In this document: positions 2,135 through 64,000 of the stretch, in pieces
Numbering within the stretch: the first letter of the stretch is position 1
Layout of the letters: the number at the start of each line of letters is the position of its first letter
Assembly: GCA_001821765.1 (NCBI GenBank)
Contig: MHOA01000001.1
Span: forward strand, 174,078 to 238,077
DNA: 64,000 bases
DNA from: Candidatus Ryanbacteria bacterium RIFCSPLOWO2_12_FULL_44_26
GTDB lineage: Bacteria > Patescibacteriota > Minisyncoccia > Ryanbacterales > HO2-45-13
Direction of reading: 5' to 3'
Translations under genes and position numbers: made by a program
The notes under the pieces: model-generated
What the model saw: the letters and a program-made list of their open reading frames with translations, nothing else
Told to the model about the DNA's origin: nothing
Databases searched by the model: none

Positions 2135-2887
2135 TTACCAAAGTTTAACTTGGGATTGATGTTGTTTTATTCTCTTTTTCGCCATTTCGCAATACTCCGG
2201 CGAAATATCAATCCCAATATAATCCCGCTTGAAGTTTATCGCAGAAATTGCCGTTGTGCCGGAACCCATAAATGGGTCCAGGATAATTTTAGCGTCCGTG
2301 GCGGAAACAATCCGGTCAATCAAATTTACCGGAAAGGCGGCCGGATGTTCATTGTTCATTTCTTGCGTAAAATCCCAAACATCGCCGTGCGCGTTCGCCT
2401 TTGTAGTAAGTTTGAATTTTGGTTTTGCGATAAGGTAAATAACTTCATAAGTAGGTAAGAAATATCCGGCGTTGAAATTGAGGCCGCCTTTCCGCTTCCA
2501 AATGATAATCTGGCGAACCGGAAAACCACTCACGATGTCTTGCCGGTCTTGCAATAAGCCGCCCTGTACACGCCATTTGTGATTGTAGAAAATTGCGCCG
2601 TCTTCCGGGATAATTCTCATCATTTCAGTCAAACAATCCCGCTGCCATTTCACATATTCGTCATGGGGCATACAGTCGTCGTGGTGTGAATAGCCGTTTT
2701 GCAGGGCGGCGTTTGCCCACTTTCCGCCACGGCCGTCTTTCATTCCGTTGCCAGTAGAATTTTTGAGATTGTAAGGAGGCGAAGTAATCACCAAATGCAC
2801 CGAGCCGTCCGGTATTTCTTTCATTACATCAACGGCACTGCCGCAGACGATCTTATTCAAAAAGTTTTCTGGAAATTTTGTCTTCAT
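2135..2887 (-). CDS. DNA methyltransferase, beta class (likely N4-cytosine partner of MvaI/BcnI-like REase)
   Basis: 250 aa. Motif IV 'SPPY' (residue ~36) precedes motif I 'DPFMGSGTT' (residue ~205). That order is the beta-group m4C/m6A architecture, as in M.MvaI, M.BcnIB and M.PvuII. Confidence 0.85.
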   Translation of the reverse strand: MKTKFPENFLNKIVCGSAVDVMKEIPDGSVHLVITSPPYNLKNSTGNGMKDGRGGKWANAALQNGYSHHDDCMPHDEYVKWQRDCLTEMMRIIPEDGAIFYNHKWRVQGGLLQDRQDIVSGFPVRQIIIWKRKGGLNFNAGYFLPTYEVIYLIAKPKFKLTTKANAHGDVWDFTQEMNNEHPAAFPVNLIDRIVSATDAKIILDPFMGSGTTAISAINFKRDYIGIDISPEYCEMAKKRIKQHQSQVKLW

Positions 2888-2888
2888 A

Positions 2889-3101
2889 TCATTTCAAAAG
2901 TTGGTCTATCGAAATATCCAACCCTGCGGCAATTTTGACGACTGTCTGAATTGAGGGCTTGGTGATTACGTTCGCCTCAATTTTAGTCAAAGTTGTATAG
3001 GGAATGTCGCACTTCCGTGCGAGTGCGTCTTGTGTCAATCCTTGCTTGGTTCGCAGGATTTTTATTTTATCCCCAATTTGTTTGTTGTTCTTGCTTTCCA
3101 T
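2889..3101 (-). CDS. controller (C) protein, XRE-family HTH regulator of R-M system
   Basis: Track ORF 2889..3134 begins at a TTG. The likely true start is the internal ATG at 3101 ('MESKNNKQIGDKIKILRTKQGLTQDALARKCDIPYTTLTKIE...'), giving a 70-aa HTH_XRE protein head-to-tail with the MTase. Upstream there are AGTATGA direct repeats and a TCATACT inverted copy that resemble a C-box. Confidence 0.6.
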   Translation of the reverse strand: MESKNNKQIGDKIKILRTKQGLTQDALARKCDIPYTTLTKIEANVITKPSIQTVVKIAAGLDISIDQLLK

Positions 3102-3206
3102 AGTATGATAGTATAAGTATGAGCGTTGATGCAAGCTCGCACAATCATACTAACATGAATTTTATTTTTTCTCAATTTATTGCCGCCAAAAATCCCGTCC
3201 GTCCCC

Positions 3207-3293
3207 GCAAGAACACGGCGGAAGGGGGTCGTTCAGACTCTGATGAGTCTTCAGACTCGAAGAGGTGTGGGGGGAATTCCGCCGTGTTCTTGC
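3207..3293. repeat. long perfect hairpin (17-bp arms gcaagaacacggcggaa / ttccgccgtgttcttgc, ~53-nt loop)
   Basis: Read directly. The loop contains nested palindromes cagactc-tgat-gagtc-ttca-gactc and G-runs. Confidence 0.7.
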
Positions 3294-3336
3294 AAAAAAT
3301 AGAGGCCAGCCCCGCCGCCCTGCTTGTCAAAGCAAA

Positions 3337-3425
3337 GCACCACAGAAAAATACTCTTTTCATTAAGAGAAAAAGAAACCCGGCGCGCGCAAAATGAAAAG
3401 AGCAAAGAGTATTTTTCTGTGGTGC
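3337..3425. repeat. long perfect hairpin (22-bp arms gcaccacagaaaaatactcttt / aaagagtatttttctgtggtgc, ~45-nt loop containing ggcgcgcgc)
   Basis: Read directly. Confidence 0.7.
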
Positions 3426-3508
3426 GGCGAGTGGTAGCGAGCGGCGGCGGGGCGGCTTCATTCGTCGGGGTTCGTTTGGTAAAAGGTTCGGATTTTGTTC
3501 AGGAGACA

Positions 3509-3632
3509 CAGCCACATTGTATGAATCGGAAAGGTTGCCTCGCGGCTTCGCCGCTCGGCATTGAATTTGGCGAGGATTTGCCAGTCATTTTTGAACGAAA
3601 CCGAAACCGCTCGCTCCGCGAGCTGGGGGTTC
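3509..3632. repeat. inverted repeat, left copy (124 bp; sense copy of tRNA-Gln last 6 nt CAGCCA plus 118 bp of its 3' flank)
   Basis: The reverse complement of 5080..5203 matches 3509..3632 at 122/124 positions (mismatch aatttggcg vs aattcagcg). This explains the shared peptide '[40 protein letters not shown]' in spurious ORFs 3458..3763(-) and 4952..5260(+). Confidence 0.85.
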
Positions 3633-3729
3633 ATTTCGCAAAGCGAAATACAAATGAAATTTGTGAGCCGACTTTTTCTTTTCCACCAAAGGCGGAAACC
3701 AAAGCGACAGTAATTATCCCAAAAGCGAT

Positions 3730-5019
3730 ATGAGCAAATTCTTTCTCTACGCAAGAAAATCAACCGACGAGCCGGATAGGCAAATTTTGAGTATTGAGGC
3801 GCAAATAACCGAATTGCGAGAGTTTGGTGAGCGAGAGCATTTGGAGATCGTGCAGGAGTTTGTGGAGAGCCAGACAGCTAAAGAGCCGGGGCGACCCGTT
3901 TTCAATCAAATGCTCTCGCTCATAGAGAAAGAATTTGCTCAAGGAATTTTGGCGTGGCATCCCGACAGATTAGCGAGAAATAGCGTGGACGGCGGCAGAA
4001 TAATTTACTTGATCGATACCACCAAAATTCGTGAGTTGAAATTCCCTACCTTTTGGTTCGATGCCACGCCACAAGGAAAATTCATGTTGAATATCGCTTT
4101 TGGGCAATCCAAATACTACATTGATAATCTTTCAGAGAATGTGAAAAGAGGGTTGCGTCAAAAAGTGAGACGAGGCGAATATCCGGGCGTGGCTCCCACC
4201 GGATACCTGAACGACAAAGTGAATCACAAAATGGTGAAAGACCCCGAACGCTATCGCCTCGTCCAAAAACTTTTTGAATTGTACGCAACCAAAAATTATT
4301 CTCTGAAAGATTTACGAAATGAAATTACTGAAATTGGCTTGGTGAGCCGGAACGGAAAGCGGCTAACTGTTTCCAATATCCAAATGATTTTACGCAATCC
4401 GTTCTACTACGGCGCGTTTAAGTTCAACGGCGAGTTATATGAAGGCAAGCACGAGCCAGCGATAGCAAAGAAACTTTTTGATAAAGTCCAAGAAGTTATG
4501 TCGGAAAAATCTCGTCCCAAGAAGCGAGGCGAGAAGACATACATTTTTCGCGGATTATTGAAATGTGGAGAGTGTGGTTGCGCTATTACCGCCGAGACGC
4601 AAAAAGGACATTCGTATTATCGCTGTACCAAAAAGAAAAATGTTTGCTCGCAACCCTACATCCGCGAAGAAAATCTCGCCTCGCAGATTTCCGACATACT
4701 TCAAAAAGTTTATTTGCCGGAAGATTGGGCGGACAATATGCTCGCGCAATTAGAAACAGACGAAGCGAGCACCGCCCAATCTGATGCCCTTTTCGCTCAA
4801 AATCTAAAAAACGAGGTTAAGGCGTGCGAGGGGAAGCTAGACATGCTTTTAGACGCTCATTTGGAAAAGACCATTACCAGCGAGGAATATATTGCCAAGA
4901 AAAACAAGATCCTCGCACGCAAGATTGATATTGAGCAGAAATTGAAAGATTTTGAGCGGAAAGGGCGATCGCTGGCTCGAACGGACGAGAAATCTCATTT
5001 TAGCCGCTCACCAAGCTAA
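3730..5019 (+). CDS. large serine recombinase (resolvase/integrase family)
   Basis: 429 aa. N-terminal resolvase catalytic motif 'FLYARKST' with the Ser nucleophile, then '[13 protein letters not shown]'. A recombinase domain is followed by a Cys cluster '[22 protein letters not shown]', the large-serine-recombinase zinc ribbon, and a coiled-coil C-terminus. Confidence 0.85.
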
Positions 5020-5079
5020 TTCTGTCGCTTTGGGAGATAATTTTTCTGAAAAGAAAAATTATCTTGAAAAAGTCGGCTC

Positions 5080-5203
5080 GAACCCCCAGCTCGCGGAGCG
5101 AGCGGTTTCGGTTTCGTTCAAAAATGACTGGCAAATCCTCGCTGAATTCAATGCCGAGCGGCGAAGCCGCGAGGCAACCTTTCCGATTCATACAATGTGG
5201 CTG
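5080..5203. repeat. inverted repeat, right copy (overlaps tRNA-Gln 3' end by 6 nt)
   Basis: See the left copy at 3509..3632. Confidence 0.85.
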
Positions 5204-5271
5204 GGGAGCAGGGATTCGAACCCCGATACTCGCCTCCAAAGGGCGATGTCCTACCATTAGACGACTCCCCA
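5198..5271 (-). tRNA. tRNA-Gln (anticodon TTG), CCA encoded
   Basis: Minus-strand sequence TGGGGAGTCGTCTAATGGTAGGACATCGCCCTTTGGAGGCGAGTATCGGGGTTCGAATCCCTGCTCCCCAGCCA. It has a 7-bp acceptor stem, anticodon stem TCGCC/GGCGA with loop CTTTGGA, and T-loop TTCGAAT. The ends are typical of bacterial tRNA-Gln (TGGGG....CCCCAGCCA). Confidence 0.85.
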
Positions 5272-5376
5272 TTGATTGCCACCCATGATACCTTAAAGCT
5301 TGTGATTTTTAAAGAGTTTGGCAAAATAAATTCACAAGAAGAACTTTGTAAGAATTGATAAAAAGTTTCCCAAACC

Positions 5377-6498
5377 TCAAGAGATCAGCTGGTTCTGATC
5401 TGTTTGTGTTATTCTCAACACTGCAAGCTCCAGAGGGATCTGCGGGAGAACAGTGGTGTGGGGTGAATGATATGCTTCTAACAACGGAACAAGAGCCAAT
5501 TCAATTTTTTTCACTCCCGCTTTTTTTGCGAGATTTTTTAAAAATGCAATCCGTTCATCCGAAAACGTGCCTTTCAGCTCGTTTTCGTATGCCATATTTA
5601 TGGCAAGAAGCAGCGCGGTGCGTAAATCCTCAATCGCCATTTTATTGAACATTTTAGGATCAACCCCCTGCTCTAAGGATTGCTCAATGACGGCAAAAGC
5701 GGTTTTGATATCGCCATGTAAAAGCGCCGATGAGAACTTTGCAACCAGACCGGCTTTCGGAAGTCCAAAAAGAATGGAAACGTCTTCTGAAGTAATTATT
5801 TCCTTATCAGCAATCCCAAGCAATTGTCCAAACATGCTTTCCGCATCCCGTAGCGACCCTTCCGAAAGAAGTGCTATGACATGCGGCACTTCTTTCTCAT
5901 GTTTTATGTTCTCTTTTTGAGCAAGCTCTTCAAGGCGTTCCTGAATCACTGAAACCGGCAGACGATGAAATTCAAAATGCTGGGTGCGCGAGCGGATGGT
6001 GTCCGGGACTTTTTCCGGATCGGTCGTGGCCAATATAAACATCACATGCTTGGGCGGTTCTTCAAGTGTTTTTAAAAGCGCGTTAAACGCTTCACGCGTC
6101 AGCATATGCACCTCATCTATGATATAGACTTTTCTCTTTGCCCTATGGGGGGCAAATCGTACTGCTTCCCGCAGTTCCCGAATCTCGTCTATTCCTCTGT
6201 TTGAAGCGGCGTCAATTTCAATAAGATCAAGCGCGCTCCCCCTAAGAAACTCCTCACAGATTCCGCATGCATTGCATGGTTCTCCGCTGCCTTTCTGTTC
6301 ACAATTCACCGCTTTCGCCAAAAGCCGTGCCACCGTGGTCTTTCCCGTGCCGCGCGGACCGGAAAACAGATATCCATGCGAAACACGCCCCGCCTCAAGC
6401 GCGCTTATTAACGCACGCACAATATGATCCTGTCCTTTTACCTCGCGAAAGGACTTGGGGCGGTATTTTCTATAAAGCACGAGCTGGTGATCTTCCAT
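5377..6498 (-). CDS. dnaX: DNA polymerase III subunit gamma/tau (short form)
   Basis: Walker A 'GPRGTGKTT', zinc module 'CEQKGSGEPCNACGICEEF', and the SRC motif region 'DTIRSRTQ'. Confidence 0.9.
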   Translation of the reverse strand: MEDHQLVLYRKYRPKSFREVKGQDHIVRALISALEAGRVSHGYLFSGPRGTGKTTVARLLAKAVNCEQKGSGEPCNACGICEEFLRGSALDLIEIDAASNRGIDEIRELREAVRFAPHRAKRKVYIIDEVHMLTREAFNALLKTLEEPPKHVMFILATTDPEKVPDTIRSRTQHFEFHRLPVSVIQERLEELAQKENIKHEKEVPHVIALLSEGSLRDAESMFGQLLGIADKEIITSEDVSILFGLPKAGLVAKFSSALLHGDIKTAFAVIEQSLEQGVDPKMFNKMAIEDLRTALLLAINMAYENELKGTFSDERIAFLKNLAKKAGVKKIELALVPLLEAYHSPHTTVLPQIPLELAVLRITQTDQNQLIS

Positions 6499-7753: not shown

Positions 7754-10207
7754 TTATCCGAATTTTTCCTGCCGGCGGGCAATCTCCGTTTCTACTTCTT
7801 CTCGCAATCTTCCGTACTTCAATCTTGATAAGTCCCTTACTGCCTCGCACACCGCTTTATTGCTGGCGGCGGGCGAATACGATTCTATATTAAACGGGCG
7901 CGTTGTCTTCCCATTAATCAGCAGCCGTATGTATGCGTGAAAATTATCTATATTTAAAAGGTCTCCTGCGGTAAAAACCGGCGCAAACTGTTTTTGCAAT
8001 AGTTCCGTATCATCAACTCCAACACGGAATGAAACAATCGTTCCAACATTTCCGAATACTGCATCTCTAATTTCTTTTGAAAGCTGGCCGATAAACTGGT
8101 GGGCCATAACAAGGTTTAAGCGGTATTTCCTTGCTTCTGAAAGAATTGTTGCAATGGATTTCGTGGTGACATTCTGAAATTCATCAATATAAAGATAAAA
8201 GTCAGGCCTTTTGCTTTCCTCAATATCAACGCGCGAGAGCGCCGCCATAAGCACCTTTCCTATGATGATAAGTCCCAGAAGGTATGAATTGAGTTCTCCG
8301 AGTCGTCCTTTGGAAAGGTTTATCAAAAGAATCTTTTTATTGTCCATAATTTCCCGAAGGCGAAACGAGCTTTTCTCCTGCGCTATGATCGGCCGCATAA
8401 TCTCATTGGCGAGAAAGGTATCAAATTTTGACGTAATATACGGCACCATATTTTGCAGAGACGCTTCGCCTCCGGCTTTCTCCGCTATCTGCTTCCAAAA
8501 CATTTTTACGACTAGATTGGAACTTCTGGAAATCTTAAACTGACGATAGTCTGAATCAACCATCACTCTTGAAATCTCAAGAAGCGTGTTTCCTGATGAC
8601 GGATCGTCCATCACCAAAAGCGTGGCATTTCGAAAATACTGCTCAAACATCGGCCCCCCGGCAACGGACATATCATAAAGTTTGTTAAAAATTTCAAGCA
8701 GTTCGTTTACAATAAACGTCTTTTGCTCCGGGTAGCGGCCATCATATTCCAGAAAATTCAACCCCATGGGACGTTCAATATCGGCCGGGTCAAAATATAC
8801 CACATCTTCAACGCGCTCTTTCGGAATAAGGCCTAAAATGTCTCTTACATCATCTCCGTGGGGATCAAGAAAACACACTCCCCTTCCTTTTTCTATATCC
8901 TCCGCAATCATGTTTTTTATAAGTGTTGTCTTTCCGGTACCGGTCTGGCCAACAATATACATGTGCCGCCTTCGGTCATCTGGAGTAATGTATACCGGCA
9001 CTTCTTCTCCCTTAAACACGCTCTTACCGATTAAAAGACCTGCTTTGGGCAGATTTGCCGGAGGAGGCGCCTCGCGGGACGTTAACATTTGGAGTCTCGG
9101 GGCTTCGGAACCCGCATAAGGAAAACGAAACACTGATGCCAGTTCGTCGGTCGTAAGGTACATGCGGGCAAGCGGATTAAATATACGAAATGAAAAGTTA
9201 TATACCGCCCGTTCCAACGCCCGTCCTTCAAGCGGCATCGCTTTAAAACTGTTGCCTTGGGGTTCAGTAAACTGCAAAAACGCCGCCTCAAGTTCCCGTA
9301 AAATTCTTGAAGCGTCATCTTCGTTAGCAGAAGAAGCCAAAAGGCGTATATTCACATCAAAACCGGTACGCGACGCTTTCTCTGTTATGAGTCTTGCCAC
9401 TTCTTCATCTCCTTGTTTTATCTCTTGGCGTGCCGTTCCGCCGCCGCCTGAACTGCCGGACGGCGCAAATCCCAACATTGCCATCGCTGCAACAAGCCAT
9501 GGATGCAGTTTTTTGGACGTTGCCAGCGCTTCTTTGATGTTTTTTCCCTCACGCACCGCTTTCGCTGCTTTTTTCCCTGCGTCATTGAGCGATCCGCTGG
9601 TAGGGCGCATTAATATTTGTATTGCCGCGCCCTCGCCTTTCTCGTTTAACTTTGCAAAAGCGCCGGCGATCACAGCAAACGGATCATGACCAATGCGTTC
9701 ATATGTATGAATCGGGAGAAGCGCATCGCGCTCAAGCACGAGATGTGAGGCCTTTGTGATACCCTCCGCGTTGAACATATTGTAATCTTCAGCTGGCTCC
9801 ACGCGGCTGTCTGGGAACATCGAATGCGTCAATTTTTGAAATGTAGAAGCATAAAAATTCGGAATCGCTGCATAAAGAACTGTTTCACCACCGGTTTCCG
9901 GAAGCGCAATTTCAAAAGATACTACCGGCTGTCCGTAGAACGCTGCCTTTCGTTTCGTCCGTTTTAACCCCAGAAAACCGGCATACATCTGCTCCATGGT
10001 GAGGAAAAGTTTCTTGGAGTTGTCTTGCTGTCCTTCTCGCTCTGCTCCCATATCTTGAGGAAGCAGAATTCTAAAAAGCCGTAAATGCAGCGAAGAAGAA
10101 ACGTCTCTAAATTGCCTCTCCCTCAATACAAAATACCGGATAAGAACGGCCACAACGATACTTGCGGCTGTTATAACATAAAACGTATTTAACAATAGCG
10201 AGGCCAT
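7754..10207 (-). CDS. VirD4/TraD/TraG-like (type IV coupling protein-like) membrane-anchored ATPase
   Basis: 817 aa with an N-terminal TM. Walker A 'IVGQTGTGKTT'. The C-terminal block 'FYLYIDEFQNV...LSEARKYRLNLVMAHQFIGQL...VFGNVGTIVSFRVG' has DExx Walker B plus the TraD/TraG-type 'AHQ' region. A paralog lies at 62439..>64000. Confidence 0.7.
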   Translation of the reverse strand: MASLLLNTFYVITAASIVVAVLIRYFVLRERQFRDVSSSLHLRLFRILLPQDMGAEREGQQDNSKKLFLTMEQMYAGFLGLKRTKRKAAFYGQPVVSFEIALPETGGETVLYAAIPNFYASTFQKLTHSMFPDSRVEPAEDYNMFNAEGITKASHLVLERDALLPIHTYERIGHDPFAVIAGAFAKLNEKGEGAAIQILMRPTSGSLNDAGKKAAKAVREGKNIKEALATSKKLHPWLVAAMAMLGFAPSGSSGGGGTARQEIKQGDEEVARLITEKASRTGFDVNIRLLASSANEDDASRILRELEAAFLQFTEPQGNSFKAMPLEGRALERAVYNFSFRIFNPLARMYLTTDELASVFRFPYAGSEAPRLQMLTSREAPPPANLPKAGLLIGKSVFKGEEVPVYITPDDRRRHMYIVGQTGTGKTTLIKNMIAEDIEKGRGVCFLDPHGDDVRDILGLIPKERVEDVVYFDPADIERPMGLNFLEYDGRYPEQKTFIVNELLEIFNKLYDMSVAGGPMFEQYFRNATLLVMDDPSSGNTLLEISRVMVDSDYRQFKISRSSNLVVKMFWKQIAEKAGGEASLQNMVPYITSKFDTFLANEIMRPIIAQEKSSFRLREIMDNKKILLINLSKGRLGELNSYLLGLIIIGKVLMAALSRVDIEESKRPDFYLYIDEFQNVTTKSIATILSEARKYRLNLVMAHQFIGQLSKEIRDAVFGNVGTIVSFRVGVDDTELLQKQFAPVFTAGDLLNIDNFHAYIRLLINGKTTRPFNIESYSPAASNKAVCEAVRDLSRLKYGRLREEVETEIARRQEKFG

Positions 10208-35663: not shown

Positions 35664-35737
35664 TGGGCACGGATGGACTCGAACCATCGACCTCTTCATT
35701 ATCAGTGAAGTGCTCTAACCAACTGAGCTACGTGCCC
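35664..35737 (-). tRNA. tRNA-Ile (anticodon GAT)
   Basis: Minus strand GGGCACGTAGCTCAGTTGGTTAGAGCACTTCACTGATAATGAAGAGGTCGATGGTTCGAGTCCATCCGTGCCCA. Anticodon stem CTTCA/TGAAG with loop CTGATAA. Confidence 0.88.
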
Positions 35738-36231: not shown

Positions 36232-36548
36232 ATTATTTAAAAGATAAGAAGTAATACGACCTTATAAGAGTGTTTTTAGCAGTGTGGTAACCGCTATCGC
36301 TGTTATAAGCATTACGCCAATAATAAAACACCTTTTTCTCTATTCTATACCTTATATAGGAAAAGAAAGATTGCAAGCTCATTTGAACGTTATTAAGAAT
36401 CCGCCGAATAGGCCGCCATTTAAAGGTTGAACGGCCAACACCTTTAAACCATTTTGTAGTTTGTAATGTATAGTCCAAAGTCAGACTAAGGACTATCAAC
36501 TATAAACTGGGTTAATCGACCTGGTAAGAATATAAATCCTTACTAGGA

Positions 36549-38770
<2,222 letters not shown>

Positions 38771-39266
38771 AAAGTCTGTATTGCTTCGCACTTCAACCAA
38801 CTTCGCAAAAGCGTCAGCTGGCGAAGAACGAAATCCTGCCTGCCCCGTATAAATCGCGAAGCGATTTTGTTCGGGGAGACAGGATCAAACTCTTAAGTTA
38901 TTCGACGGATTCTTAATAACATAATGCGTCAGCGTTTTGCAGTTTTGGGCTTGACGATAGTCAAGCATATCATCCAAAACTTATATCTTAAACGCATCAA
39001 CATTTTATGGTACTTAATTGTCAACGTGCTTTCAAAATACAACCGCGACTATCTCACATTCTCAGAAACAGTCGCGGGTGTACTTGGATTTTCAATGTAT
39101 TTAGATTTGCTAATTTCCTTCATCCATACATCTCCCTAGTTCTATACGTTTATTATATGGCAGCAGAAGTAGTTGTCAAGCCCTCTTTTTTAAAGTGTGG
39201 AAAAGCGTTAGACCTAAAAAGAATGCGTGATAAGCATAAAACATACTTCAGAAAACCGACACCGAA

Positions 39267-40529
39267 TTATCCTCGCGCTTCAATGATTTTTTTATACACC
39301 CTTGCGCTTGGACGTATATTCCTCTTTAAAGTTTTATAATCAATACCGACAAGTCCAAAACGGGGCCAAAACCCTTTATCCCATTCAAAATTATCAAGCA
39401 GCGACCAGTAAAAATAACCTCTCACATCAACACTTTCTTTCATGGCCTTTTGGATTTGTAAGATATTGTCTTTTATGAATTGCTCGCGGGAATAATCACG
39501 CGCGTCTGCGATACCGTTTTCAGTAATGAAGAGTGGTTTTTTATAAGCCCGCAAGGATTTGAGGATATAGTAAAGCCCTTCGGGATAAATCTCCCACCCC
39601 ATGTCGGAAGTCTTTTTATTTTCATTCTGACTGAAACTCCACCGAACTCTACTATGAAAATAATAATTTACTCCTATAAAATCCTGTTTTTTTTGAATTG
39701 AGTTGAGAAACTGAAAGTTCCAAAAGTAATTTGCAAAAAGGGCCAGAAGATAATTCCATGGATTTCTTCCATGCGGTTCAAAGTAAACTACGTTTTTTAC
39801 AATCCCAACCTGCGCCTTGGGTAACTTCTTATGAATAATATCATATGCTTTTTCATGCGTTCGCCGAAGATTTCGAAGCACTACAATATACCGTAGTAGT
39901 GACTTGCTTTGTGGAGGCCAGATACCTTTCAAAAAACTATTACTTGCATACACCATCGGTTCATTTATGGTTATCCAAAAAGTAACATCGGGATAGAAAT
40001 CAACAATTTTTTCCACAAACCGTTCAAAATATTTTGGCGCGTCGTTATGCAACCATGCGCCAGACTGTTCAAACCATACCGGAATCGTCCAGTGATATAG
40101 CGTAACAAACGGCTCAATTGCTCTTTCTTTTAATGCATCAATAACTTCGCGATAATGTTGCACCTCTCTTTTATTAAATTTTCCCTCTTCCGGTTCAATG
40201 CGCGACCATTCAATAGAAAAACGGTGGGCATTATGACTAAGGCGGCGCGCTAGATCAAAATCCTCCTTAAAGCGGTGATAATGGTCAACCGCCTTGCCTG
40301 AAATATAATTTTCTTCATGTAAAGGACTTGGATATGCTTTTAAGATATGCTCAGGCCACTCTTTTTTTATTGCCGCTAAGCGTTTGTTATTTGCTGTTTT
40401 TTCTTCCCATATAGACCAGTTATTGAGATTGTTCCCTTCAACCTGATGGGCGGAGGTAGCGCTTCCCCAGAGAAAACCCTTGGGGAAGATTTGTTGTTTA
40501 TAGTTTGTAGTACGTAATTTATTGTTCAC
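39267..40529 (-). CDS. glycoside hydrolase family 1 beta-glucosidase
   Basis: 420 aa. 'FLWGSATSAHQVEGN', acid/base 'TINEPMV', and nucleophile 'FITENG'. Confidence 0.88.
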   Translation of the reverse strand: MNNKLRTTNYKQQIFPKGFLWGSATSAHQVEGNNLNNWSIWEEKTANNKRLAAIKKEWPEHILKAYPSPLHEENYISGKAVDHYHRFKEDFDLARRLSHNAHRFSIEWSRIEPEEGKFNKREVQHYREVIDALKERAIEPFVTLYHWTIPVWFEQSGAWLHNDAPKYFERFVEKIVDFYPDVTFWITINEPMVYASNSFLKGIWPPQSKSLLRYIVVLRNLRRTHEKAYDIIHKKLPKAQVGIVKNVVYFEPHGRNPWNYLLALFANYFWNFQFLNSIQKKQDFIGVNYYFHSRVRWSFSQNENKKTSDMGWEIYPEGLYYILKSLRAYKKPLFITENGIADARDYSREQFIKDNILQIQKAMKESVDVRGYFYWSLLDNFEWDKGFWPRFGLVGIDYKTLKRNIRPSARVYKKIIEARG

Positions 40530-40539
40530 TACTTATGCA

Positions 40540-40821
40540 TTAAAACTGAATTATATAAAAACCTTTTTTCTCAATTTCTTTTTTTTGGTGAAAGTCATTG
40601 AGATGAAATATAAAAACAGCATTCACTTTTTTTCTTAACTCTCTTCCCATATATGCCTTTGTTTTAGGGTTCCATTCTTTAAGAATAATAGTATCACCAC
40701 TTTTAACTTTAAAATCGGCCAACCTCATTTCAAATTTCTTTTTATCTTCCTTTACGGCACGAAAGTATTTTGGCCAGATTTTCTTTTCTATTGTTGCCAT
40801 ACCTCTAATTAGAGATTCCAC
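40540..40821 (-). CDS. DUF3850 (ASCH/PUA-like) domain protein
   Basis: 'KIWPKYFRAVKEDKKKFEMRLADFKVKSGDTIILKEW' matches the DUF3850 N-terminal pattern (K.WPEYF..V..G.KTFE.R.ND....GD.L.L.E). The start may be the Met at 40800. Confidence 0.55.
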   Translation of the reverse strand: MESLIRGMATIEKKIWPKYFRAVKEDKKKFEMRLADFKVKSGDTIILKEWNPKTKAYMGRELRKKVNAVFIFHLNDFHQKKEIEKKGFYIIQF

Positions 40822-40847
40822 AATTTTCGAGAATTGTGGAATATTTA

Positions 40848-42623
40848 TTATGCCACCTCGACACTATAACATTGTTCGCAATACACCGTCTCTAATCTTT
40901 CAAGTGCGTACGAAGTCTCAAATTCATTCGGACAGCGACCAGGTTTATGGAAATGTTCGGCTGTATTTTGGTATATACCATTATCGGATTTCGTGCCGCT
41001 ACACGTACATTTCCGGTGCCAGAGTTTTAAAGGGTTGCGCTGTTTAATTCTCTGGTAGTGCCTGCAGTTAGGACAAAGTCTTGGAAAGGAAAGGTTTTGC
41101 TTTCTATAAAACTCCAGTTCTTGTGGAATTATTCTAAAGGCTACTGAGCAGTTTTCATTGCATTTTCCCTTGTGCTCGCAACCGATGATTTGGTTTAAAA
41201 TATCATCGGTGATATCTTTAATGTGGTTAGGAAGATTTTGTGGCTGGATAGTAACATTGTGTTCTTTGGCTTCTGGATTTTTCCATGAATAACCCCATTC
41301 TAAAATCTCTTCCTTTGTAAATGGGAGATATTCTTGGGCCATTGTTTCATTATATGCAAAGGGAGAAAATTCTGTGGGAAAGAATTCTCCATATTTATAT
41401 ATCCTTTTTTTCTTGTCCACATATGGCATTTCATTCATATGTTCTATTATTTTTGGTATCAGTTTCTCGTATTCTTCTTTAGTATATTGCTTATTTAAAA
41501 CACAGTATTGTTTATTCCGAAGTCCATTACAACCAAAAATATCAGAACAGTCCCTACAATTATATGAGTATTGGACGTTGTGGCCCTGAATAATATTTTG
41601 AGAGAAAAGAACCCGATATCCCCATGCTGTATCAACCTCATAACAGAGTTGCGATTCTTCTCCAGTCTCAACAAGGTCATAACTATCTTTTACAGCTGTG
41701 GCAATTAGGACATTTTTACAATTCTCAGTAGAAGATGTTAAAGGATCAATATCAAAACAAAACGTACAATTCTTTGCGTTCGTAACGTTGTTTCCAGTCG
41801 TATTTACTGAATTGAATAAATGTGCGTAGCGACGGGGAAATGTTTTCTTTAGCTCTTCAAATTCTTTTCTCAACTTCTTTACAGTTTCTTGATTTCCTAA
41901 ATTATATTGAGAGATTTTTTTCTTATATTCTTCTTCTTGGTAGGGCTTATTGAAAATATGATACGATTTGTTGCGAAGACCTATGCAGCCAAAGCAGTGA
42001 TGACAATTGACACAATCATAGAGAAATGAAGAATTATAGCATTCAGCCGCATATTGCGAATGAGTAACATTGTAACAATGTGCGCAGTCAATTGTTTCAT
42101 AACAATTCTCTGAATCTATAAGATAAAAATAATCAGCACTATTTTTCACATTTCTCGTATAATGCCCATAGAGACAATCCTCTGCCATAAAGCCGACTGT
42201 ACGGTAGCAGTTTTTAGAAGAGTTTATTAGAGAACAATAATGACAATTGATAGAATTCAGTGTATTAAGGTTTTGTCGAGGAACAACATCAAAGAGTTCC
42301 TTTAACTGCTTAAAAAATGGGGTGGAGAAATTATACGTTCTTTCATATTCTTGAGGATCCCATTTCTCTGACCTCCAGATTTCTTCTCTAAATACAGGAA
42401 ACGGAACGTCAGGAGAAAAAATAGAGACGATTTCTTTCCCATCAAAACTATCTTTACGCTTAAAAAGAGTACGTTCGTTTATAGTTGCCAGTCTTCGATG
42501 GAACCGACACTCCGGGCACCATGTGGGCGGCGGCACTTTTATTTTCTCGTAAAACACAAGGTCTTCCGACTCAATAGTAAATTCTTTCTTACAATTCTGA
42601 CAATTTTTTATTTCACTAATCAT
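40848..42623 (-). CDS. cysteine-rich protein with terminal zinc ribbons and internal Cys-rich repeats (uncharacterised)
   Basis: 591 aa with about 60 Cys. The N-terminal 'CQNCKKEFTIESEDLVFYEKIKVPPPTWCPECRFHRR' parallels the C-terminal 'CSVAFRIIPQELEFYRKQNLSFPRLCPNCRHYQR'. Internal repeats 'YDCVNCHHCFGCIGLRNKSYHIFNKPYQEEEYKK' and 'YNCRDCSDIFGCNGLRNKQYCVLNKQYTKEEYEK'. Confidence 0.5.
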   Translation of the reverse strand: MISEIKNCQNCKKEFTIESEDLVFYEKIKVPPPTWCPECRFHRRLATINERTLFKRKDSFDGKEIVSIFSPDVPFPVFREEIWRSEKWDPQEYERTYNFSTPFFKQLKELFDVVPRQNLNTLNSINCHYCSLINSSKNCYRTVGFMAEDCLYGHYTRNVKNSADYFYLIDSENCYETIDCAHCYNVTHSQYAAECYNSSFLYDCVNCHHCFGCIGLRNKSYHIFNKPYQEEEYKKKISQYNLGNQETVKKLRKEFEELKKTFPRRYAHLFNSVNTTGNNVTNAKNCTFCFDIDPLTSSTENCKNVLIATAVKDSYDLVETGEESQLCYEVDTAWGYRVLFSQNIIQGHNVQYSYNCRDCSDIFGCNGLRNKQYCVLNKQYTKEEYEKLIPKIIEHMNEMPYVDKKKRIYKYGEFFPTEFSPFAYNETMAQEYLPFTKEEILEWGYSWKNPEAKEHNVTIQPQNLPNHIKDITDDILNQIIGCEHKGKCNENCSVAFRIIPQELEFYRKQNLSFPRLCPNCRHYQRIKQRNPLKLWHRKCTCSGTKSDNGIYQNTAEHFHKPGRCPNEFETSYALERLETVYCEQCYSVEVA

Positions 42624-62438: not shown

Positions 62439-64000
62439 TTAAGTGAGCCGAACTTTTTCTCCCGGGCGCAGCTTTGCGCCTCCTTTTTCTTTCTCAACAA
62501 CACTTCCCTTTGTTGGGCTGTTATCGATACCGGACTGCTCTTTTTCGCCATTCGCCACTTCACCTTTCCACACTTGTCTTAAAACATCTCTTAACCCGGG
62601 GAGATTTGGATTTCTCCTTTTCAGTTTTACACTTTGTTTATTTGATAAGGCATGTAACGACAGTGTTTCCTCAACCGGCTGGCGCACCACATAACTACCT
62701 TCCGAAACTCCCGGAAATCTCTTTGATTTGGAAGCTTTTTTTGAGTTTATAGCATCTTCAAGGGCATAGACATCATCTTCAAATTCAATACCAAGCGCCC
62801 CAAGACTTGCGCCATACTGCTGATAATCGCTTTTTTTAGGGAATTTACGGGCCGGAATAGAAGAAAGTTCTCCTGAATTAACTTTTTTAAAACACGAGGT
62901 ACAATATACCGGTCTCCTGCCATCTGGTTTGTACGGCACCTTTGCCTGCTTACCGCAATGAGCACATTTGGCTATGTACTGCTTTTCTCCGTCTTCTTTA
63001 TCCTTACTCTCTTCATTTTCGTCCCCTATGCCTCCACTCCATTTATGTATTTCTTCTTCAACTTCCTTCATGTCGCGTGAATACAGGCGTCGGGAATTCA
63101 ACATAATCCTTTCCGCACAATCCGGTATGGATTTAATTTGGATGGGGGGCAAGGTTGAAGCAGAAAATGGTCTACATGTTACTCCATCCACCATCAGTTT
63201 TAGATAAATTTCACGGTTGGGAAGGTTTACGAGATCCTCGATGGTAAACTCCGGAGTAAATTCCTTTTCCAAGAACTCAGCATCAGCCGCTCCAACACGA
63301 AATATAAGAAGCGTGCCGACATTCCCGAATACCGCATCTCTTACTTTTGTGTCCTGCTCTGTAACAAGCTGACCGATATACTGATGTGCAATAATAAGAT
63401 TTAAGCGGTATTTCCTTGCTTCAGATAAAATAGAGGCAAAGGAATCCGTGGCAAAGTTCTGGAATTCATCTACGTAAAGATAAAAATCTTCTCGCTCGTT
63501 TTCAGAAATTCTGACACGCTCCATGGCAGCGAGCTGAAGCTTCGTGATCACCATAGCGCCAAGTAGCCTTGAGTTATTCTCTCCTATCCTTCCTTTAGAA
63601 ACGTTCACCAGAAAAATTTTTCTTTTATTCATTATATCGGGAATATTAATGGTGCTTTTTTTCTGCCCGACGATATTTCTGATAAACGTTGTATTTAAAA
63701 ATTGTCCTACCTTGTTCTGAATTGGAGCAATGGCTTCACTGCGAAATCGTTCATTATAGTTTTCGTATTCGTGCACCCAAAATGACCTCACGACCGGATC
63801 CTTCACATTTGCCAGCACTTTCCTTCTATAGTCCTTATCAACCAAAATCCGGGGGATACCGAGCAGTGTTGAATCAGGCGCATCAAGAAGCGCAAGCACG
63901 CAATTGTGCAAGATATATTCCATTCTAGCCGACCAAACATTTGCCCAAATTTTTGTGAAAATACCCATTAGATCAGACGCCACCAAGTGTTTATACTTGG
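62439..64000 (-). CDS. VirD4/TraD-like ATPase paralog with C-terminal zinc ribbon, partial (5' end beyond window)
   Basis: 'FYLYVDEFQNFATDSFASILSEARKYRLNLIIAHQYIGQL...VFGNVGTLLIFRVG' is ~60% identical to the C-terminus of the 7754..10207 product. The tail has 'CAHCGKQAKVPYKPDGRRPVYCTSCFKK' (CxxC...CxxC). The reading frame is open to the window edge. Confidence 0.65.
   Translation of the reverse strand, partial: KYKHLVASDLMGIFTKIWANVWSARMEYILHNCVLALLDAPDSTLLGIPRILVDKDYRRKVLANVKDPVVRSFWVHEYENYNERFRSEAIAPIQNKVGQFLNTTFIRNIVGQKKSTINIPDIMNKRKIFLVNVSKGRIGENNSRLLGAMVITKLQLAAMERVRISENEREDFYLYVDEFQNFATDSFASILSEARKYRLNLIIAHQYIGQLVTEQDTKVRDAVFGNVGTLLIFRVGAADAEFLEKEFTPEFTIEDLVNLPNREIYLKLMVDGVTCRPFSASTLPPIQIKSIPDCAERIMLNSRRLYSRDMKEVEEEIHKWSGGIGDENEESKDKEDGEKQYIAKCAHCGKQAKVPYKPDGRRPVYCTSCFKKVNSGELSSIPARKFPKKSDYQQYGASLGALGIEFEDDVYALEDAINSKKASKSKRFPGVSEGSYVVRQPVEETLSLHALSNKQSVKLKRRNPNLPGLRDVLRQVWKGEVANGEKEQSGIDNSPTKGSVVEKEKGGAKLRPGEKVRLT

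Follow-up and report, generated by a model that had tools for sequence, protein, structure and literature searches.

A large family of predicted finger-and-solenoid proteins in Patescibacteria and its genomic linkage to VirD4/TraD-like ATPases

Described examples of type IV coupling include VirD4 with the XVIPCD-domain effectors of Xanthomonas and DotL with the IcmS, IcmW and LvgA adaptors of Legionella. In Patescibacteria, a 2025 survey counted 5,713 VirD4-like coupling proteins in 2,918 genomes, about two per genome and rarely near secretion genes; 148 of them lie near virB4, relaxases are almost absent, and the survey's authors consider an exaptation of these coupling proteins possible (PMC12102498). 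Here we examine a gene for a cysteine-rich protein in a 64,000-nucleotide stretch of the genome of Candidatus Ryanbacteria bacterium RIFCSPLOWO2_12_FULL_44_26 (contig MHOA01000001.1, positions 174,078 to 238,077; this whole stretch is referred to as the window, and nucleotide positions are those of the window unless a locus is named). The gene occupies positions 40848–42623 on the minus strand and, according to the list of open reading frames (ORFs), starts with an ATG and encodes 591 amino acids plus a stop; the product is identical to the deposited Candidatus Ryanbacteria hypothetical protein A3C80_02785. It is an ordinary member of a large uncurated family that is confined to Patescibacteria among the named sources, and whose members are frequently encoded in tandem and, at a substantial minority of loci, next to VirD4/TraD-like ATPases.

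The resemblance to a type IV coupling protein and its substrates is that a VirD4/TraD ATPase is encoded beside proteins with conserved and variable portions. The differences are that the ATPases in question lack a transmembrane segment of their own, that channel, relaxase and immunity genes are not recurrent neighbours of theirs, and that the linkage is one of genes; moreover, no family member is similar to any known effector or adaptor. Two other described groups bear on the protein itself. Of the zf_Tbcl and zf_Tbcl_2 fingers, both annotated as a 'probable treble clef', zf_Tbcl shares the cysteine pattern of its first two fingers, and a zf_Tbcl_2 finger in the neighbouring ATPases aligns with its third; they differ in that the window protein scores below the family threshold, that its third finger has a single-cysteine first knuckle, and that such domains would cover about 150 of the 591 residues. 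The narrow beta-solenoids matched by its structural model include the Tenebrio molitor antifreeze protein (1ezg), the Lolium ice-binding protein (3ult), curli CsgA (8c50) and the left-handed hexapeptide-repeat enzymes, all with only 5–11% sequence identity. Unlike these, the family protein has two solenoids per chain, each with an LRNKxY...KEEY cap and with zinc-finger-like domains on either side, and no ice-binding, amyloid or acyltransferase motifs are evident in it. Searches of the literature for the family, the finger names and cysteine-rich tandem paralogs in Patescibacteria found no description of it.

Family size, tandem arrays and linked ATPases

The body of the 591-residue protein has no match to a curated family in Pfam, NCBIfam, PHROGs or PADLOC, and sequence searches of the PDB, run with the protein alone, with a profile of its full length and with profiles of two sub-domains, did not assign it to a family. 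The sequence-only reading of this region, which could not place the protein in a known family, thus holds, the Pfam result being a sub-threshold zf_Tbcl match; that reading missed how large the family is and that it forms tandem arrays, and it recognised neither the two beta-solenoids nor the VirD4-like ATPase as a conserved neighbour. Family proteins are typically about 550–600 amino acids long and form at least 7,970 clusters at 90% identity (E≤1e-3), while an exhaustive HMMER scan of 1.84 billion representatives yields 4,985, 3,682 and 2,191 clusters at 50% identity with E-value limits of 1e-3, 1e-10 and 1e-30, respectively. The best 150 matches are mostly of 540–625 amino acids with a single full-length match, and the shorter ones (428–540 amino acids) look truncated. 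All named sources are Patescibacteria, mostly of Parcubacteria-type lineages, with the exception of one 2,185 bp contig (CAYZAZ010000094.1, locus L044) that carries a family member and is binned as 'uncultured Gammaproteobacteria'; because every other named source is a member of the Patescibacteria, this is most likely a binning error. One homolog is named 'putative phage protein', and we considered a viral origin for the family; we rejected it because no relatives were found in 2.9 million IMG/VR viral contigs and because the arrays sit amid housekeeping genes.

We collected 80 species-representative genome loci seeded with family members, each extending 6 kb to either side. At 45 of these there are tandem arrays of two to six copies within 6 kb; the copies of an array almost always share an orientation, and many are separated by under 100 bp. 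Long tblastn matches of 2.1–2.6 kb were considered as possible insertions or inteins, and this was rejected since they consist of adjacent paralogs joined together. The median best identity of the arrayed copies is 45% within their own locus and 57% between genomes, and for 95% of them the most similar copy is encoded in a different genome, not alongside them; a recent tandem amplification was rejected on these grounds, and by sequence comparison the arrayed paralogs are ancient. Divergence is unevenly distributed along the proteins, with 24–31% identity in the solenoids and the helical linker between them, and 45–59% in the fingers, the solenoid caps and the middle domain.

The ATPases linked to the arrays match the TrwB_AAD_bind, TraG-D_C and DUF87 families and are of two types, both without transmembrane segments: a long type of 560–830 amino acids that has a CxxC-x17-CxxC finger and a disordered tail, and a short type of about 490 amino acids. 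A VirD4-like ATPase is present at 27 of the 80 family-seeded loci. Of 34 such genes, 32 share the orientation of the family copy closest to them, the median distance between the two being 53 bp; from a figure of about two per genome, we take the chance of such an ATPase in a random 14-kb window to be about 4–5%. The association is reciprocal. When the short ATPase is used as the seed for 80 metagenome loci, a family ORF is found at 65 of them, and of the 27 loci that extend 2.5 kb or more to each side of the seed, 23 contain a family copy no further than 1 kb away, in all 23 cases on the same strand. Co-encoding with a VirD4/TraD ATPase is therefore a property of the family and not of the window copy. 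The array-linked ATPases are not found within a type IV apparatus, with its anchor, VirB4 and channel genes, and genes for VirB4, secretion channels, relaxases or immunity proteins do not recur in their neighbourhoods.

Two membrane proteins, of 450 and about 172 amino acids, usually precede the short ATPase, and neither matches Pfam; in locus L045, for example, the genes for the 450-residue protein, the ~172-residue protein and the 490-residue ATPase lie at 2642–3994, 3995–4513 and 4523–5992. The window provides a point of comparison, since at 7754–10207 (minus strand), 30 kb from the cysteine-rich gene, it encodes a membrane-anchored VirD4-like ATPase of 817 amino acids, recognised by Pfam and with an N-terminal transmembrane helix predicted from hydropathy. 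The 450-residue membrane protein is related to the N-terminal region of this product (blastp, 21% identity over 384 amino acids, E 5e-9); the short type thus resembles an anchored ATPase divided into separate genes, and the separately encoded 450-residue protein may supply the anchor for the short ATPase. A second ATPase in the window, at 62439–63986 (minus strand) and 20 kb from the cysteine-rich gene, is of the long type, with a zf_Tbcl_2 finger (PF23477, E 2.8e-13), TraG-D_C and TrwB_AAD_bind matches and a disordered tail; its product matches an array-linked ATPase with a phmmer E-value of 4.9e-155. Its N-terminus, including the P-loop region, lies outside the listed ORF, and the window ends at position 64000.

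Other genes recur in these neighbourhoods. CutA1, a PII-like protein of divalent-ion tolerance, is encoded inside arrays at seven of the 80 family-seeded and 15 of the 80 ATPase-seeded loci, for instance between the ATPase and family copies at L002:9285–9593 and L009:8130–8435; this recurrence may be relevant to zinc-rich proteins or may be mere synteny. A protein with sigma-70 region 4 and a HARE-HTH domain is encoded at L087:1641–2699 and at 21 other loci, conserved upstream of the membrane-protein and ATPase cluster. With SecDF, the sigma-70 region 4/HARE-HTH gene, DnaJ and DnaK as neighbours, the region is recognisable as core chromosome.

Predicted architecture of the 591-residue protein

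A first AlphaFold run with 40 close homologs gave a predicted local distance difference test (pLDDT) score of 70.6. A second run, to which 58 members of a divergent subfamily (31–38% identical to the window protein) were added, gave a pLDDT of 93.1 and a predicted template modelling (pTM) score of 0.90; this is the model described here. It contains three treble-clef-like fingers, two beta-solenoids and a conserved alpha/beta domain. Figures for conservation, covariation and export signals are from 152 family copies taken from the genome loci, and all of the segments listed below are encoded on the minus strand. Cysteines make up 34 of the 591 residues, or 5.8%, rather than the approximately 10% given in the sequence-only reading.

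The fingers have a cysteine knuckle in a hairpin and a second ligand pair at the N-terminus of a helix, which is the treble-clef layout and not that of the classical zinc ribbons that had been proposed for the protein ends. Finger 1 (residues 1–57; 42453–42623) has C8, C11, C36 and C39 as putative ligands, all four of them 97% conserved, followed by a basic helix, and has a net charge of +4. In the model, C8 and C11 lie between strands 4–7 and 14–17 and C36 and C39 at the start of helix 37–45, in the order strand-strand-helix-helix, so that this finger shows the zf_Tbcl-type arrangement of two cysteine pairs, one in the knuckle and one at the helix N-terminus. The zf_Tbcl model (PF13451) does match residues 7–44 of the window protein, at 16.3 bits and E 0.0095, below the gathering threshold of 24 bits; eight of 40 homologs match it at E≤0.01, the best at E 1.2e-5. 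Finger 2 (residues 481–538; 41010–41183), with C482/C488, C492, C517 and C520, is a duplicate of finger 1. Residues 9–57 and 490–538 are 37% identical over 49 amino acids (pairwise E 1e-10), a profile-profile comparison with hhalign gives 99.4% probability (E 2e-21), and the two share the pattern CxxC...F.I...FY.K...P..C..CR. The homology of mirrored terminal segments described previously is thus real, but the second copy (488–538) is internal and is followed by a third finger. Fingers 1 and 2 are basic, each followed by an arginine-rich helix, and finger 2 carries a charge of +9 in the window copy and +7 in the family mean.

Finger 3 (residues 539–591; 40851–41009) forms the true C-terminus and differs from the other two. 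Its cysteines are C539, C564, C582 and C585, each 99% conserved and invariant in both subfamilies sampled; in the divergent subfamily, ligands are missing from fingers 1 and 2, with other residues in place of C11 and C39, and finger 3 is invariant. It is probably of the CxxC-x17-CxxC, or zf_Tbcl_2, type. The spacing is C564-x17-C582xxC585 and the first knuckle has a single cysteine, so that finger 3 does not have the two CxxC motifs 17 residues apart that define TIGR04272 and PF23477; C539, 25 residues upstream, is likely the fourth ligand. The finger of the neighbouring ATPases is itself PF23477 zf_Tbcl_2/TIGR04272 'CxxC-x17-CxxC', and hhalign of finger 3 against those of ten neighbouring ATPases gives 82% probability and E 1e-5 over 27 columns only. 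PF23477 matches one of 40 homologs and, in precomputed annotation, five among 120 listed members of the divergent subfamily, and does not match the window protein. Small Methanosarcina mazei proteins with the TIGR04272/PF23477 domain bind zinc, as determined by inductively coupled plasma mass spectrometry (PMC12704099), and we infer that the fingers of this family bind zinc as well.

Between finger 1 and the first solenoid is a linker (residues 58–110; 42294–42452) that holds an optional fourth cysteine site in other copies. This CxxC...CxxC site (columns 58/61/79/82) is present in 42% of the family copies, and the window copy is among those without it. Its cysteines are all-or-none, with phi values of 0.96–1.0 among positions 61, 79 and 82, all of them present in 64 copies and none in 85–88; being present or absent as a unit, they behave as the ligands of a metal site would.

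The body of the protein appears to be formed by two solenoid modules that, by sequence comparison and in the model, arose by internal duplication. Module M1 (residues 111–237; 41913–42293) consists of repeats of about 12 residues with the motif [ND][CS]x[YF], followed by a cap, CxxCxxCFGCxxLRNKxYxIFNKxYxKEEY, and a helix; M2 (residues 270–388; 41460–41816) duplicates M1, cap motif included, and the cap consensus in each solenoid is FGCxGLRNKxYxIxNKxYxKEEY followed by a helix. Residues 111–237 and 270–388 are 36% identical (blastp, E 1e-21), and the M1 and M2 profiles align with 99.9% hhalign probability (E 2e-37, 114 columns). A duplicated module of about 35 residues had been noted before, and the FGCxGLRNKxY...KEEY segment is indeed present twice, at 202–237 and 352–388; the duplicated unit, though, is about 125 residues long. 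Both structure comparison, which shows stacked coils, and sequence periodicity identify these modules as beta-solenoids: the autocorrelation of cysteine and serine in the solenoids peaks at lag 12 (r 0.68), and the PDB structures matched by the model are generic beta-solenoids only. A pentapeptide-repeat assignment was rejected, as the pattern recurs every 12 residues, with a sub-period of 3, and not every 5. The cysteine columns of the solenoids are 12–80% cysteine, with serine, valine and leucine as substitutes, and show no pairwise covariation (phi≤0.5); being replaceable and not covarying, these cysteines are not metal or disulfide sites, and the family does not present a disulfide-laddered helix of the Tenebrio type, which is secreted and has obligate cysteine pairs.

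The solenoids are separated by a helical linker (residues 238–269; 41817–41912) that contains a helix at 245–261 in the model and is the least conserved part of the protein, with 24–25% identity. M2 is followed by an acidic alpha/beta domain (residues 389–480; 41184–41459), which is conserved, has a YGEFFP...SPFxYNET motif and has no detectable relatives. Charge is partitioned among these parts, with averages of +4 and +7 for fingers 1 and 2, −4 for each solenoid, −5 for the middle domain and −3 for finger 3. No signal peptide, transmembrane segment or hydrophobic N-terminus is found in any of the 152 copies, and no catalytic residue pattern was recognised in the 591-residue protein, which from its sequence we regard as cytoplasmic and without a recognisable catalytic motif. 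The H557-F-H559 sequence was considered as that of an HUH-type nuclease and rejected, since 26% of copies lack both histidines and the divergent subfamily lacks the entire segment. The earlier description of a multi-zinc-finger scaffold is a fair one.

The DUF3850 neighbour and other features of the window

Directly 3′ of the cysteine-rich gene and in the same orientation, as stated in the sequence-only reading and borne out by the ORF list and Pfam, is a DUF3850/ASCH-like gene at 40540–40800 on the minus strand (PF12961, E 1.4e-15). Its start is most likely the ATG at 40800, giving 86 amino acids, because there is an AGAGG ribosome-binding site upstream and because this agrees with the deposited protein and with 86-residue homologs; a GTG at 40821 is a less likely start. 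The spacer between the two genes is 47 nt and contains an inverted repeat with a 12-bp stem (40815–40842), with no T-run after it on the coding strand.

The proteins of the DUF3850/ASCH group are small and have an RNA-binding fold, and the downstream gene is a clear member; the 86-residue protein belongs to its own widespread Patescibacteria family, separate from that of the cysteine-rich protein and with variable neighbours. A pairing of the two genes had been put forward, together with its absence elsewhere as grounds for giving it up; we find no recurrence of it, and on those grounds it is refuted as a conserved pairing. Searches with tblastn, phmmer and jackhmmer found the window DUF3850 protein at none of 160 loci (the 80 family-seeded genome loci and 80 ATPase-seeded metagenome loci). 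The two closest orthologs of the cysteine-rich protein (61–63% identity) keep the upstream EamA gene as in the window and lack DUF3850, their downstream genes being a ParE-toxin pair and then a second family copy in one case and UvrB in the other; at L081:7840–8357, in the locus of the closest long-contig ortholog, a small gene and a ParE-like toxin gene lie between two family copies. Conversely, four other DUF3850 orthologs, at seven loci, have varied neighbours, and at none of the seven is there a family member within 4 kb. By these comparisons of gene content, the DUF3850 neighbour is incidental and lies outside the conserved context of the family. A two-gene RNA-directed system, in which the cysteine-rich protein and the ASCH/PUA-like protein act together on RNA, would fit the short same-strand spacing and the lack of a terminator-like T-run between the genes in the window; given the counts above, and a G+C content at third codon positions (GC3) in the DUF3850 gene (0.264) much below that of its surroundings, we find it scarcely credible.

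The GC3 values of the cysteine-rich gene (0.323) and of the glycoside hydrolase GH1 gene (0.363) are likewise below the 0.435±0.031 found for a set of 12 long window genes. The segment at 39267–42623, containing the GH1, DUF3850 and cysteine-rich genes, is flanked by glycoside hydrolase genes, and may be a compositionally distinct segment that was acquired later.

Elsewhere in the window there is a 16S rRNA gene at 36543–38766 (minus strand) that spans 2,224 nt, as against the 1,533 positions of the model, and contains a group I intron at 37425–37708 (minus strand; Rfam RF00028, 63 bits). Insertions in 16S rRNA genes are a known trait of Patescibacteria. The odd ORFs listed at 37921–39139 overlie or adjoin this gene, and a tRNA gene lies just downstream of it at 35664–35737 (minus strand; Rfam RF00005, 78.7 bits).

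Proposed role and meaning for Patescibacteria

The reciprocal linkage leads us to propose, tentatively and at somewhat less than even confidence, that the family proteins are non-enzymatic clients or adaptors of orphan coupling-protein-like ATPases. We infer from gene order a physical interaction with the ATPase and hence a client or adaptor role. The finger-bearing ends and the middle domain would be the constant part, docking the protein to the ATPase, the long form of which carries what is probably the same kind of finger as that at the C-terminal docking end; the fast-diverging faces of the solenoids would determine what an individual paralog recognises, be it a cargo, a target or a nucleic acid.

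Several observations weigh against this proposal. At 53 of the 80 family-seeded loci there is no such ATPase within 6 kb, the window copy is 20 and 30 kb from the nearest ones, and its closest orthologs stand alone or beside other genes with no ATPase. The ATPase-seeded loci are 75–86% identical to the query and share SecDF, the sigma-70 region 4/HARE-HTH gene and DnaJ, and with such close kinship and shared neighbours the linkage could partly be inherited synteny and not the product of selection for co-expression. The array-linked ATPases lack transmembrane segments and have no secretion-channel genes among the neighbours that recur beside them, the 82% probability for the likeness of finger 3 to the ATPase finger depends on 27 columns, and the basic fingers fit stand-alone nucleic-acid binding equally well. 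This last possibility is the most serious of the alternatives: the basic fingers on either side of the solenoid body would clamp or bridge RNA or DNA, with different paralogs recruiting differently, and the ATPase would be in synteny without cooperation. Treble-clef and ribbon fingers often bind nucleic acids, and the charges of fingers 1 and 2, each with its arginine-rich helix, agree with this, as does the fact that many copies, including that in the window, are far from any ATPase, and that the arrays lie amid DnaJ, DnaK, RpoD-like and SecDF housekeeping genes. However, the rest of the protein (solenoids, middle domain and finger 3) is acidic, no known nucleic-acid-binding domain is similar to it (the finger 1 profile against PDB sequences has a best E-value of 0.24), and the tight, same-strand, reciprocal adjacency to two ATPase paralogs is left unexplained; we consider a stand-alone scaffold of this sort rather unlikely.

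The remaining alternatives give the cysteines a chemical role. Paralog arrays beside a translocation-type ATPase recall the substrate arrays of secretion systems, and one could imagine an unconventionally exported cargo that acts outside the cell, as a cysteine-laddered beta-helix that resembles the antifreeze proteins of insects or the heads of adhesins and acquires its disulfides once exported. Yet a signal peptide or transmembrane segment is absent from all 152 copies, zinc fingers are a typical feature of proteins that stay inside the cell, and the solenoid cysteines give way to serine, valine or leucine with pairwise phi values no higher than 0.5, unlike those of the true four-cysteine sites, all of which makes export improbable. 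A redox or iron-sulfur scaffold, with clustered cysteines such as the CxxCxxCxxC at 204–213 binding a cluster or shuttling electrons, would account for the 84–95% conservation and ferredoxin-like spacing of C204, C207, C210 and C213; but in M2 cysteine is retained at just two of the four equivalent positions (C356 and C365), 359 being mostly serine and 362 not cysteine, there is no iron-sulfur, radical-SAM or ferredoxin match in Pfam or NCBIfam, the invariant sites have zinc-finger geometry, and a related domain binds zinc (PMC12704099). We regard it as very improbable, and the redox role suggested by the sequence-only reading likewise finds little support, the solenoid cysteines being freely replaced without covariation in pairs and the finger-3-like type being one that binds zinc.

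The client-or-adaptor proposal can be extended to one that, on the gene linkage described here, we put forward as speculative and on balance unlikely. The thousands of orphan VirD4-like ATPases of Patescibacteria would have in this family the partner they lack. They would recognise it through the shared finger-bearing ends and either move its members or, with these as adaptors, move something else; the proteins would possibly be handed to relaxase-less type IV machinery for delivery into host cells, with each ancient paralog serving a different target.

Both the fold types and the logic of a coupling ATPase with partners are already known. What is new is the architecture, with two duplicated, cytoplasmic beta-solenoids framed by three or four zinc fingers, and the thousands of sequence clusters that have no curated model merit a family definition. 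Patescibacteria make up a large share of bacterial diversity and have tiny genomes and a dependence on hosts, and yet they keep several paralogs of about 590 residues, up to six in a row. The reciprocal gene linkage ties together two unexplained gene sets of these organisms, and should the partners prove to serve a repurposed secretion system as cargo or adaptors, the family could be more novel than its folds suggest.

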